Shown here piece by piece: positions 8,389-11,665 of a stretch of 24,898 nucleotides of DNA. Under the pieces are notes generated by a model that saw only the letters and a program-made list of their open reading frames with translations, made no database searches and was not told where the DNA came from. Source of the stretch: a virus (taxonomy: Duplodnaviria; Heunggongvirae; Uroviricota; Caudoviricetes); the IMG/VR virus record IMGVR_UViG_2718218305_000013. One strand, written 5' to 3'. How positions within the stretch are numbered: the first letter of the stretch is position 1; every line of letters begins with the position of its first letter. A program made the position numbers and the translations under genes.

Positions 8389-8955
8389 TTAAACAGGATA
8401 AAAACCAGAGCTTCCATTCTTATTTAAGTTATGGATTTTATTTGCATCATTAATTTTTATTTGGAACGTCGGACCTTTATTCTCAAGAATTACAATCTGG
8501 AAATTATAGTCCCTTTTGATTAATGCGTGATAAAATGAATCACTGAGACTGACGCTATTAACATCCGATAGAGAACCCCCTCTATCTTTATCAAAGTGCG
8601 TCACTAATGGACTATCAAGCACAACAAATCCAATGAATGGATTCCCTTTTCTTGATAAAAATTCCGCAAAGCAAATGGTAAATATAGCATGCATTACTGC
8701 ACGGGTACCTTTACCAAACATTCCTCGGCGTTTCCCATTGATATTAAAGTCATATGTATCTTCGTCAAATCGCACTTTGTTATCTTTAGAATTTTCAAAA
8801 TTTATATCATTCAAAAAGTCTTGCATCGCTATTTCTATATCATACAAATCAGCTACTGTTAAGGAGTCAAAGTCCTCGGCGGAGTATTTAAGTTCGTCAA
8901 CATCATCTTCTTTATCTTGTAATGAAGATAGAATGCTATGTTTTGTGTGATCCAT
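8389..8955 (-). CDS. Cassette gene F: C-terminal ABC/SMC-like ATPase head (Walker B region), 188 aa
   Basis: FIGFVVLDSPLVTHFD (Walker B-like hhhhDsP plus D-loop) preceded by a GKGTRAVMHAIF signature-like segment; ATG overlaps the E stop (TAATG); very AT-rich. Confidence 0.6.
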   Translation of the reverse strand: MDHTKHSILSSLQDKEDDVDELKYSAEDFDSLTVADLYDIEIAMQDFLNDINFENSKDNKVRFDEDTYDFNINGKRRGMFGKGTRAVMHAIFTICFAEFLSRKGNPFIGFVVLDSPLVTHFDKDRGGSLSDVNSVSLSDSFYHALIKRDYNFQIVILENKGPTFQIKINDANKIHNLNKNGSSGFYPV

Positions 8956-9545
8956 TAAAAGATTGTCTTTATATTCATAAAGTGATTCAAGAGATGAATG
9001 TATTGTTTTATATTTTTATCTTCTAACGTCTTAAAATCACTTTTTTCTGATTGATAAATTTCATTAACATCATTTTTTCTTAACATAATTAATTCATGTT
9101 CGCGAACATTAGATCCGATTGATTCAATTAATCCTTTCAGCTGGCTTTTGATTTTCAATTTTTCTGCATTACACGACAAAAAACAATCATCATATGATAT
9201 TTCATTTTCTTTTTTTTGCGGTGTATTACAGAACTCACAATAAATATCTGCAAAATTATTTAAATAGAAATTCGCCTGTGATACAACATCTATTCTTTGT
9301 AGATCTATAAAGTATTGGTCTTTAAGAAGACTAAATCTTTCAATGAGTAATGATAAGTATTTTTCCCTGTCACTGATTGAATATAATTCATCACTTAACT
9401 CTTTTAATAATTGCTTCTTATCATCAAGTGCATCAACAATACCTTTCAATATATCTTTCGATGATTCAATATCTTGCTCTACTTTCTCAAGTTCTCTTGA
9501 AACAATGACTTGATCATATTCAGGATAAATTAATTGCGCTTTCAA
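8955..9545 (-). CDS. Cassette gene E: coiled-coil segment of the SMC-like ATPase; in frame with D across a single TAA
   Basis: Heptad-rich, charged sequence; the track start is TTG with no usable RBS; the D frame continues into E across one in-frame TAA at 9576-9578. Confidence 0.5.
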   Translation of the reverse strand: MKAQLIYPEYDQVIVSRELEKVEQDIESSKDILKGIVDALDDKKQLLKELSDELYSISDREKYLSLLIERFSLLKDQYFIDLQRIDVVSQANFYLNNFADIYCEFCNTPQKKENEISYDDCFLSCNAEKLKIKSQLKGLIESIGSNVREHELIMLRKNDVNEIYQSEKSDFKTLEDKNIKQYIHLLNHFMNIKTIF

Positions 9546-9575
9546 TTCCTCATAAATATTTGCAATTTGATTTTT

Positions 9576-10208
9576 TTAAAAATATCTTGCTTTTTTATTT
9601 GGTTTTTCTGCTAAGGAGTTAGTATCATCTCTCTGAGTTAAAAGGAATTTAAATTCAGACTTTCTTTTTGTCTCCTCGCTAGGAATATCAGAAAGAATTA
9701 ACGACTTCTCAGTTAACACTCTTAATTCATCAATACAAAAAAATTCAAAAACATTATTAAGATTAAATTTATGAAGAGTATTACTTAAGTTTGTTCTTAC
9801 TTTAGCCTCTTTGAAATTCAACCTACCATAAAAGTATGATGAAAAACTCTTTTTAGACGAAGCACTTTTGGAAAAAACCATCAACAGATTAGCTTCACTA
9901 ACATTTTCAATGCTCGAATCATATAATCTGTAATGGGCGCTATCCTGAAGAGACCTCTCAATTGTCATTACCCTACCTTGAAAATTAAATTCCAGATAGG
10001 CTAAATCATAACCTTGAGCATGATCGATATCTTTATTTTTTAGTTTTTCACTCCCTAATAAATATCGAATCAAATAATATATGTATGTTTTTCCAGAGTC
10101 AGAACCACCATATAAAATAGTCAATTTAGAACCAAATTCAATTATAGCATCTAATTTATTGAATCCGGTTACCTTTATTTTTCTGAACGTAAAAAAATTG
10201 TCATTCAT
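9576..10208 (-). CDS. Cassette gene D: N-terminal ABC/SMC-like ATPase head (Walker A), about 210 aa
   Basis: FTFRKIKVTGFNKLDAIIEFGSKLTILYGGSDSGKT is the canonical N-terminal strand plus P-loop of SMC/RecF/AAA_15-type ATPases; likely ATG at 10208, 2 nt after the C stop. Confidence 0.65.
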   Translation of the reverse strand: MNDNFFTFRKIKVTGFNKLDAIIEFGSKLTILYGGSDSGKTYIYYLIRYLLGSEKLKNKDIDHAQGYDLAYLEFNFQGRVMTIERSLQDSAHYRLYDSSIENVSEANLLMVFSKSASSKKSFSSYFYGRLNFKEAKVRTNLSNTLHKFNLNNVFEFFCIDELRVLTEKSLILSDIPSEETKRKSEFKFLLTQRDDTNSLAEKPNKKARYF

Positions 10209-10659
10209 AATTAAATTCCATATCATATTTGCCAATTTTATTTTTTATAATTGATTGCAACTGCTCATCAGGAATATCACTATATAACTTAACCACCAAA
10301 TTTATATTATGCTCCATCTGCGCAACATATTCATTATGTAGAGAATTTGTAAATGCATATGTTTTTTCAGAAGCTTTATATACAAAACCACGATGTGTAT
10401 AAATTTTTGAGGCTAGTTCATAGCCTTGCAACAAAGCCAATGATTCTAAAACAATCTCTCGTTTTAGGGCTAACTGAGCATCTCTACGGGGTATTGGAGG
10501 ATGAAGACTAATCTCTTCAGGTAAAAAATCCTTAAGATTTACTAAAATAAAATCAAAACAAATAAGCCGTTCAAGGCTTAATGAAGAAGGATAAATAGCG
10601 ACGAGCACTTTCGCCATTCGACATGCCACTTCTAAACTTGAATTATAAATTCTAACCAT
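10201..10659 (-). CDS. Cassette gene C: small protein of unknown function, about 152 aa (LmuC-like by position only)
   Basis: ATG at 10659 overlaps the B stop (TAATG); no motif recognised. Confidence 0.5.
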   Translation of the reverse strand: MVRIYNSSLEVACRMAKVLVAIYPSSLSLERLICFDFILVNLKDFLPEEISLHPPIPRRDAQLALKREIVLESLALLQGYELASKIYTHRGFVYKASEKTYAFTNSLHNEYVAQMEHNINLVVKLYSDIPDEQLQSIIKNKIGKYDMEFNYE

Positions 10660-11276
10660 TATCTCACCGTCCAAATTACTTCACCATCATTAACCAAATG
10701 ATGGCATATTCCTTTTTTATCATTTGCTTCACATATTTTTGATAGTACTGAATGTGCAATTGGTGTCAGAACAGCCTGCTTCAAGACTGCATTACACCTA
10801 ATAAATGCATAATTATGGTCTTCATAAAAGACGGGTTCAATTGAAGATGAAATGTAACATTTCAATGCTTTGAATACATCATCTTTAAATACTTCGCGGA
10901 CAAAAACCTCAAGCGAAGATGCAAAATAAAAATCATTTCTACTATTATTAAAGTGTCGTCTGTATGGATCATCAAGCTCTAAGAAAGAACTATAAGTTTT
11001 ATTTCCATGCTCTGAATAGGCTTGAAGCAGTGCATTAACATATACAGACTCTTTTTTTGAATTGTATGTTGGAATTTCATTTGGAGGGATTCTCACGACA
11101 TACAGCTCGTTAAAGTACTTAAAATAAAGGTGTGTATTTGCAATATCATTTAAAATCAATGATAAGGGTAGAGAGTAAAAAATACTAAAATCAAAATCCT
11201 CAATATATTTTTTTATTTCATCATCTAATGGAATATCAATCTTTTTAGTTATTTTTTTGAAATTGCTGAATCCCAT
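10659..11276 (-). CDS. Cassette gene B: unknown, 205 aa; probably the C-terminal part of an A-B fusion (-1 frame relative to A)
   Basis: Overlaps A by 28 nt in the -1 frame; the overlap contains the heptamer A AAA AAA immediately before the A stop codon. Confidence 0.5.
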   Translation of the reverse strand: MGFSNFKKITKKIDIPLDDEIKKYIEDFDFSIFYSLPLSLILNDIANTHLYFKYFNELYVVRIPPNEIPTYNSKKESVYVNALLQAYSEHGNKTYSSFLELDDPYRRHFNNSRNDFYFASSLEVFVREVFKDDVFKALKCYISSSIEPVFYEDHNYAFIRCNAVLKQAVLTPIAHSVLSKICEANDKKGICHHLVNDGEVIWTVR

Positions 11277-11665
11277 GAATCAAGGACTGCTTTTTTAAGC
11301 TCGTTTTTATTTTTCAATAAATTAGAAAATGTAGTAGATAAATCATAGGGTGCCACAAAAAAGTACTTCTGAGGGATGGGATAATCACCATTCAGAGTAA
11401 AATAGATAAGTTTTCCAAACTCAACTACAACATCAGAGAACCCTAAACTTTTTTTGTACAGTTTGCATTGATAATTATCCCAAGAATAACCTTCTACGTT
11501 AGGATCCGATTTATATCCAACAACGTCTCTACCTTTATCTCCAGCTCCTCCCAAACGTTCGCTCCACGGGTAATCATCTGATTTACAGACAATAAGCCAA
11601 TCATGGACAAATACCTCCCATTGTTCATCATCCCATGTCAATATTTCCGAAAGTGGTTGAGACAC
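11249..11665 (-). CDS. Cassette gene A: PD-(D/E)xK nuclease domain (Mrr-like catalytic motif), 138 aa
   Basis: GGAGDKGRDVVGY ... YQCKLYK matches the Mrr-cat pattern (G-x-G-D-x-G-x-D ... Q-C-K); GTG start 3 nt after the int stop with AAGGAG embedded in the last int codons. Confidence 0.6.
   Translation of the reverse strand: MSQPLSEILTWDDEQWEVFVHDWLIVCKSDDYPWSERLGGAGDKGRDVVGYKSDPNVEGYSWDNYQCKLYKKSLGFSDVVVEFGKLIYFTLNGDYPIPQKYFFVAPYDLSTTFSNLLKNKNELKKAVLDSWDSAISKK

Follow-up and report, generated by a model that had tools for sequence, protein, structure and literature searches.

A 24,898-nucleotide (nt) stretch of viral DNA (IMG/VR record IMGVR_UViG_2718218305_000013), referred to here as the window, comes from Escherichia coli O157:H7 and includes the element that the Sakai annotation calls 'prophage Sp2, P4-like phage'. 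We examined a block of six tightly packed minus-strand open reading frames (ORFs A to F; positions 8389-11665), sited between the delta and int genes of this P4-like satellite, that carries an anti-phage defence system of the Lamassu type in fragments. The G+C content of the block is ~30% (0.27-0.34 across 8500-11500), whereas it is higher in the flanks (0.49-0.52 at 6501-8000 and 0.40-0.47 at 11501-12500). ORFs A and B, which overlap at a run of seven A residues (A7), are read in different frames, D and E share one frame with a single TAA between them, and E and F are in different frames joined by TAATG. The coordinates, base composition and junctions in an initial annotation, which was made from the sequence alone and described six coupled AT-rich ORFs between delta and int, were all correct. 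The setting is that of a P4-like satellite hotspot. Cargo lies between int and psu/delta, a sid-like gene is present, and an alpha-type primase, recognized by Pfam primase-helicase domains, is encoded farther along the satellite. The Psu protein of this satellite type is divergent, with ~31% identity to P4 Psu as given in PMC11754643.

Profile searches resolved the six ORFs into three genes. ORFs A and B tile the PADLOC LmuA model PDLC03852 (336 positions), with A covering positions 10-140 (E=9e-41) and B positions 141-333 (E=4e-44); between them they supply the N-terminal effector domain and the C-terminal domain (CTD) of a Lamassu LmuA protein. ORFs D, E and F likewise tile the LmuB model PDLC03863 (610 positions) over positions 3-199 (E=8e-50), 231-412 (E=1.6e-21) and 428-608 (E=5e-37), respectively. 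Pfam matched D to AAA_23/SMC_N and F, below threshold, to DUF3732. The product of ORF C, encoded between these two genes, is the small middle component LmuC. The initial annotation had considered the products of B and C to be of no recognisable family; instead, B is the C-terminal half of LmuA, matching the Pfam CTD6 family of ABC-3C systems (E=7.7e-30), and C is LmuC (Table 1). NCBIfam contained no meaningful match for any of the six ORFs, and Pfam contained no family for ORF A alone or ORF E alone. RefSeq labels parts of the locus as components of ABC-3C, which is the earlier name of type II Lamassu (bioRxiv 10.1101/2025.06.23.660979), and the Sakai ATPase is flagged as a pseudogene. The six ORFs are fragments of an ordinary three-gene Lamassu operon of type II ('short'), in the order lmuA-lmuC-lmuB and with an Mrr-type nuclease effector.

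A search with the joined D+E+F protein returned single-ORF matches of 606 amino acids (aa) from Proteus mirabilis (~88% identity) and Pantoea alhagi (~76%), together with about two dozen more LmuB homologues of 594-612 aa and 43-47% identity from Salmonella, Serratia, Klebsiella, Citrobacter, Yersinia and Aeromonas. Uninterrupted operons encoding proteins of 335, 152 and 606 aa, with 1-nt and 8-nt overlaps equal to those in the window, were found in Pantoea (loci L009-L011) and P. mirabilis (L007 and L008). In Pantoea the order is int-lmuA-lmuC-lmuB-delta-psu-sid, which is the same satellite hotspot; the genes there are uninterrupted in the same int-to-delta context, and the frame breaks of the window are not conserved. 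We found 152 LmuA homologues, and among the 120 listed nearly all were single ORFs of ~325-380 aa. Recurrent inactivation of lmuA in other species was considered and rejected, as the short gene calls at L007 and L009 are start choices of the gene caller and both loci contain an intact 335-aa ORF with a GTG start.

Lesions were defined by nucleotide alignment of the window with the corresponding loci of E. coli O55:H7, P. mirabilis and Pantoea. The window contains exactly three frame-breaking differences, namely a 1-nt deletion in lmuA, a 1-nt deletion in lmuB and a nonsense substitution in lmuB (Table 1). Restoring these three bases yielded LmuA, LmuC and LmuB proteins of 335, 152 and 606 aa, the same lengths as in the intact orthologues, and the repaired LmuB aligned over residues 1-606 without a gap to homologues P0001 (87.8% identity) and P0002 (75.6%). 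The initial annotation had left open whether the locus was a new variant or a pseudogenised copy; the fact that three single-base repairs restore a gap-free operon supports the second and not the first. In the window lmuA and lmuB are each broken, and lmuC alone is a single uninterrupted ORF. Its length and both of its overlaps (1 nt with the lmuA stop codon and 8 nt with the lmuB start) are identical to those of the intact loci L010 and L008. We also noted a 344-aa protein (P0027) with an MC2 domain and 99% identity to the joined D+E+F query over 32% of its length. This protein resembles a fusion of LmuC to the N-terminal part of LmuB and could derive from one more indel, in one of the assemblies, where lmuC and lmuB overlap. 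An unbroken E. coli allele was absent from the 5,426 complete E. coli genomes searched by blastn in 'distant' mode, and neither LmuA nor LmuB of this type was present at full length from E. coli in a collection of 5.8 billion proteins.

The motifs quoted in the initial annotation are present and fall on family-invariant columns of the LmuA and LmuB alignments. In LmuA these are G42, D43, G45 and D47, followed by Q66, C67 and K68. An AlphaFold2 model of the gene A product, built with 40 homologues, was confident (predicted local distance difference test score of 93.8) and adopted a PD-(D/E)xK fold, a restriction-endonuclease-like alpha-beta core with the D...(E/Q)xK motif of Mrr-like nucleases. 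Gene A itself did not match Pfam Mrr_cat, and 16 of 40 full-length homologues did (best E=1.6e-6). LmuB has the organization of an ABC ATPase in which a coiled coil is inserted between Walker A and Walker B. Its Walker B sequence FVVLDS agrees with the short-Lamassu consensus hhhhD[Q/S/T/E] (PMC12663957), and CxxC zinc hooks like the putative one at the apex of its coiled coil have been described for many short LmuB proteins (PMC12663957). A family profile of LmuB searched against the PDB retrieved the solved LmuB chains 9hqu (E=1.2e-9) and 9ny5_D (E=5e-6), the latter being from Vibrio cholerae LmuABC (PMC12663957), and then SMC/Rad50 heads. Single-sequence PDB searches with the repaired LmuA, LmuC and LmuB gave nothing useful, so that solved LmuB was reached by the family profile only; the LmuA family profile found no solved relative by sequence in the PDB. 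Profile and structural comparisons of A+B, C and D+E+F therefore identified LmuA with a PD-(D/E)xK fold, LmuC, and an SMC/Rad50-like LmuB. Together with the comparative evidence they bear out the proposal that a Lamassu-like system combining a nuclease with an SMC-like ATPase occupies this P4 hotspot. Because the family-invariant residues (Walker A, LDSPL, the CxxC hook and the D...QxK motif) all survive, the decay is recent.

The distribution of the locus made it possible to order the lesions. A 3401-nt stretch around the six ORFs is 100% identical in Sakai and EDL933. The locus is present in 308-309 complete E. coli genomes, with most copies 100% identical and all at least 99% identical, and the stretch had 312 matching places, chromosomal in all but one. 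Both 1-nt deletions are common to O157:H7 and its sister lineage O55:H7. In contrast, the TAA in lmuB is absent from the two O55:H7 genomes examined (RM12579, L003; TB182A, L012), in which D and E form one 394-aa ORF. These two genomes have an extra 1-nt lmuB deletion of their own at ~9041-9046 (in the segment equivalent to window positions ~9041-9050), such that two frameshifts separated by 28 nt displace the O55:H7 lmuB frame by -2 overall. Individual O157 strains have further indels at 9210, 9665 and 11621, a part of which may reflect sequencing error in homopolymers. In 309 of the 309 E. coli records carrying the locus, the 81 nt around the lmuA lesion were 100% identical over the aligned stretch. 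The 81 nt around the lmuB deletion were identical in 290 records, and the other 19 fell in the 95-99% band, where the O55 allele would be expected. An 81-nt megablast query around the nonsense codon had no matches, with T5A7 probably masked as low complexity; the prevalence of the TAA was therefore not counted but derived from how 37 of 40 O157-type records in a sample are annotated and from the division into 290 and 19 records at the nearby lmuB deletion. Eight coding substitutions separate the O157 allele from the O55 allele, seven of them non-synonymous (the stop included) and one synonymous, giving an omega (non-synonymous to synonymous ratio) of ~1.7, whereas omega was 0.085-0.115 in comparisons spanning the time when the genes were intact. 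Decay has been stepwise, with two ancestral lesions followed by lineage-specific ones.

In three O157:H7 records (NZ_CP089270, NZ_CP089034 and NZ_CP089032; strains M1300706002, 6535NalR and 6535WT) the locus matched in two pieces over ~4.7 kb. Their annotation places a transposase of the IS3-like IS1203 family under the match and calls the ATPase fragment 'ATP-binding protein'. This looks like a further, independent disruption by insertion of an insertion sequence (IS).

The locus has been described before. In the Domainator paper (Johnson et al., NAR 2024, PMC11754643), E. coli hotspots between Psu and the integrase were clustered, and the largest cluster (cluster 1) comprised 259 instances with '3 to 9 CDSs' (coding sequences), 'related to Lamassu systems'. 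The clone tested from it and named 'Lamassu-var' is CP038295 4116517-4120474. We found that this segment is the present locus in O55:H7 TB182A, from delta through gene A, and that it is 99.7% identical to the window. 'Lamassu-var' was presented there as an abundant undescribed variant with in vivo activity, whereas we find a decayed canonical operon; the main text of that paper contains none of the terms frameshift, pseudogene or truncat-. The O157 allele has one lesion, the TAA, that the tested O55 allele does not. The clone produced smaller plaques of T2, T4, T6 and RB69 at the highest dilutions (PMC11754643), and the passages describing it mention no ATPase or effector mutants. Its insert takes in the first base of the gene A start codon and ends there. 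In the window the lmuA GTG lies 3 nt past the int stop codon (11666-11668), and the spacing is equal at the intact Pantoea locus L010 (4329-4331), so lmuA has no intergenic promoter of its own; the spacing implies either co-transcription with int or a promoter within the 3' end of int. The 'Lamassu-var' construct consequently lacks the native 5' region of lmuA, and we infer that its phenotype is weak support for Lamassu activity. The possibility, raised in the initial annotation, that the locus could be new was not upheld, as RefSeq already names its parts and the O55:H7 allele is in print. The Lamassu at this locus is a known kind of system, already annotated and published, and it is decaying.

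By analogy with characterized Lamassu systems, two LmuB subunits and one LmuC in the intact form would keep a LmuA monomer inactive through the LmuA CTD. LmuA would be released when DNA ends or phage replication intermediates are sensed and ATP drives the LmuB heads to engage, and the freed protein would oligomerise through its CTD such that the nuclease domains cut DNA and cause abortive infection. This mechanism of sequestration, release and oligomerisation is taken from PMC12663957, 10.1101/2025.03.14.643221 and 10.1101/2025.06.23.660979. Millman et al. (bioRxiv 10.1101/2022.05.11.491447) showed that the Lamassu-family systems they tested depend on the SMC ATPase, on the effector domain and on lmuC, and that a Lamassu-Mrr system cloned from a different E. 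coli strain works through abortive infection. In the window the lmuA deletion separates a free nuclease domain (A) from the CTD (B) needed for gating and oligomerisation, while the TAA and the 1-nt deletion divide LmuB into three pieces, namely the N-terminal head (D), the hook-bearing coiled coil (E) and the C-terminal head (F). As published mutagenesis has shown that Lamassu-family systems can spare neither the ATPase nor the effector nor LmuC, loss of function is expected, and the O157:H7 copy most likely does not work and drifts neutrally. Overall we favour, with a probability of about 0.88, the interpretation that the locus is a pseudogenised type II Lamassu-Mrr in the int-to-delta/psu hotspot of Sp2.

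Several observations weigh against this interpretation. With the invariant catalytic residues all kept, the fragments may in principle remain able to fold. Just eight substitutions underlie the N:S ratio. The lmuA lesion created an in-frame A_AAA_AAA at which a predicted -1 ribosomal slip would regenerate full-length LmuA. Finally, the O55:H7 clone, with the frameshift in lmuA and two more in lmuB, gave smaller T2, T4, T6 and RB69 plaques in the published assay (PMC11754643), which suggests some residual activity.

The retained residues, the heptamer and the plaque data also speak for a rival reading, in which the locus is a functional 'split' or recoded Lamassu (the published 'Lamassu-var'), with LmuA made by -1 frameshifting on A_AAA_AAA, LmuB acting as head, coiled-coil and head fragments that assemble non-covalently or through low-level recoding, and weak defence as the outcome. 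We consider this unlikely. A selected architecture should be constant, but the interruptions vary by lineage, with an extra deletion in O55, a stop codon in O157 and indels in single strains, and the orthologues in Pantoea and P. mirabilis and homologues from many other taxa are uninterrupted. Retention of the locus in ~309 genomes would favour function, but it reflects one clone in which every copy is at least 99% identical. Omega has been ~1.7 since O157 and O55 diverged. The slippery heptamer is in the correct frame and directly before the stop codon. However, no stimulatory RNA structure lies downstream of the A7 run, where the predicted fold is weaker than that of shuffled controls (z=+1.1). 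No X_XXY_YYZ heptamer coincides with the lmuB deletion, and read-through of UAA would additionally be needed for O157 LmuB. The starts of B and F have no Shine-Dalgarno match, and a GAGG lies just 2 nt upstream of the TTG of E. As for the reduced T-even plaque size, the published insert had no lmuA 5' region and also contained delta, and the phenotype was seen only at the highest dilutions (PMC11754643). We also rejected the possibility that lmuA is a programmed -1 frameshift gene. The A_AAA_AAA was made by the deletion, the closest intact orthologues having AAAGAAAA or AATAAAA in one frame, and the preponderance of single ORFs among the listed homologues and the lack of a downstream structure point the same way.

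A related possibility is that the broken operon is partly active, in that a -1 slip yields a little full-length LmuA, which reassembled LmuB fragments, or in O55 the D-E fusion plus F, might be able to gate. We regard this as quite improbable. If it were true, partial activity would explain the published weak anti-T-even phenotype, and recoding would maintain the locus at low dose as a naturally 'attenuated' Lamassu.

A pseudogenised Lamassu-Mrr also fits the data far better than a different ABC-ATPase defence system such as Gabija, Septu, PARIS or type I/IV restriction, which we judge very unlikely. ORF D has weak secondary matches to GajA, AriA and PtuA models (E 1e-3 to 1e-6), attributable to generic ABC-head similarity. 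In PADLOC, however, the LmuB models far outscored those of all other systems on D, E and F, the partner genes match LmuA and LmuC models and the ABC-3C families CTD6 and MC2, and the genes are ordered and overlap as in type II Lamassu; Gabija, Septu and PARIS were accordingly rejected. That the interruptions are sequencing or assembly errors in homopolymer runs of genes that are truly intact has a negligible likelihood, for although all three lesions lie in or beside A/T runs and such errors could account for some of the additional indels of single strains, one of the three is a substitution rather than an indel, the surroundings of the lmuA lesion are the same in 309 independently assembled complete records and those of the lmuB deletion in 290, the reference genomes Sakai and EDL933 agree throughout the 3401-nt stretch, and the protein collection lacked LmuA and LmuB of this type at full length from E. 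coli.

The operon shares with Lamassu-Mrr (type II/short, ABC-3C) the lmuA-lmuC-lmuB order, an Mrr-like N-terminal domain plus CTD in LmuA, an MC2 LmuC, a ~600-aa LmuB with Walker A, an hhhhDS Walker B and a CxxC hook, and a location in a defence hotspot of a mobile element. It differs in having two frameshifts and one nonsense codon that interrupt lmuA and lmuB. At the DNA level the tested Lamassu-Mrr of E. coli SE15 is not close, and no other E. coli match was found by 'distant' blastn, which reaches ~65-70% identity. V. cholerae DdmABC (Lamassu Vc-Cap4) and Salmonella LmuACB (9NY5, 9NYG and related) have a homologous LmuB and the same LmuA-CTD/LmuC/LmuB architecture, and DNA-end sensing and effector release are presumed to be common to them and the system described here. 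In contrast, the effector of Vc-Cap4 is Cap4 whereas ours is Mrr-like, the CxxC hook present here is missing from Vc-Cap4 (PMC12663957), and the CTD family of Salmonella LmuACB is CTD7 rather than CTD6. Rad50/SbcC and SMC proteins share with LmuB an ABC head split by a coiled coil with a CxxC zinc hook, and similarity to their N-terminal heads was detected at E values of 2e-5 to 1e-2. However, the LmuB coiled coil is much shorter, its partners are LmuA and LmuC rather than Mre11/SbcD or kleisin, and its role is in defence rather than repair.

These results indicate that the most abundant 'Lamassu variant' reported from the E. coli P4 hotspot is not a new architecture but a frameshifted canonical Lamassu-Mrr fixed in the O157:H7/O55:H7 clone. 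E. coli defence-system counts that include 'Lamassu-var' are therefore inflated, and the 'Lamassu-var' cluster is abundant because the O157:H7 clone is heavily sequenced. O157:H7 should be scored as having no working Lamassu at this locus. The locus also provides a clear, datable case of a defence system decaying in place within a P4-like satellite. Defence pseudogenes are reported to be rare in such satellites, making up <1% of P4 pseudogenes (bioRxiv 10.64898/2026.02.27.708500); the present locus is a clear exception, made conspicuous by the heavy sequencing of O157:H7. Suitable constructs for studying the CTD6/MC2/Mrr subtype would be the intact orthologues from Pantoea and Proteus, or this locus with its three bases repaired.

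Table 1. Features of the Lamassu locus and its satellite flanks, in window positions
Feature	Coordinates	Strand	Basis or detail
ORF A	11249-11665	-	ORF listing
ORF B	10659-11276	-	ORF listing
ORF C	10201-10674	-	ORF listing; annotated start 10659
ORF D	9576-10235	-	ORF listing; annotated start 10208
ORF E	8955-9545	-	ORF listing
ORF F	8389-8955	-	ORF listing
lmuA pseudogene (A+B)	10659-11665	-	PADLOC, Pfam (CTD6, 8e-30); repaired length 335 aa, GTG start
lmuC (ABC-3C middle component MC2), intact	10201-10659	-	152 aa; Pfam MC2 6e-30; PADLOC LmuC PDLC03871 2.5e-36
lmuB pseudogene (D, E, F), short-type SMC/Rad50-like ABC ATPase	8389-10208	-	PADLOC; repaired length 606 aa
lmuA frameshift	11249-11258	-	1-nt deletion of G/T in TCAAA[G/T]AAAATAA, giving A7 (11252-11258) and then TAA (11249-11251)
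lmuB nonsense substitution, codon 211	9576-9578	-	TTA (Leu) to TAA; TTA in P. mirabilis and O55:H7, CTG in Pantoea
lmuB frameshift splitting E from F	9013-9018	-	1-nt deletion at head of A run (~9018), A6 in P. mirabilis to A5 here; alignment column 2659
LmuA nuclease catalytic core, GDKGRD ... QCK (D43/D47 to K68)	11462-11539	-	
LmuB Walker A, GGSDSGKT	10086-10109	-	G34, S36, D37, G39, K40 invariant; G35, S38, T41 nearly invariant
LmuB Walker B, FVVLDS, hhhhD[S] type	8611-8628	-	LDSPL: D532, S533, P534, L535 invariant
CxxC (CEFC), putative zinc hook at LmuB coiled-coil apex	9228-9239	-	C324, C327 invariant in 21 homologues
Terminator-like hairpin, 13-bp stem	8329-8362	-	directly downstream of lmuB stop; consensus scan only
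Satellite sid-like, psu and delta genes	6401-7979	+	Pfam Psu and Ogr_Delta matches; bound the hotspot opposite int
Satellite tyrosine integrase	11669-12850	-	ORF listing, annotation, Pfam integrase

Scans for other signals were also carried out. A promoter scan of the locus performed no better than on shuffled sequence, and no tRNA gene was found in the window. The far end of the satellite, past the primase gene, contains a 318-aa AT-rich ORF (29-39% G+C; 676-1632, plus strand; Sakai ECs_0304) with no Pfam or PADLOC match; the satellite may have a second variable position here, with this ORF as orphan cargo. Where Sp2 meets the adjacent lambda-like prophage remnant Sp1 there is a partial IS3-family transposase (13406-13771, plus strand; ISEc48 partial in the Sakai annotation) and, adjoining it, an AT-rich AraC-family regulator (13813-14556, minus strand).

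A second defence gene is present in Sp1, ~3.5 kb from the decayed Lamassu. The ORF at 15329-16153 (plus strand; annotated start ~15380), which is Sakai ECs_0285 'hypothetical protein', matched the PADLOC PD-T4-3 model over its full length (E=2.3e-140) and contains a Pfam GIY-YIG (LEM-3-like) domain. This gene appears intact.

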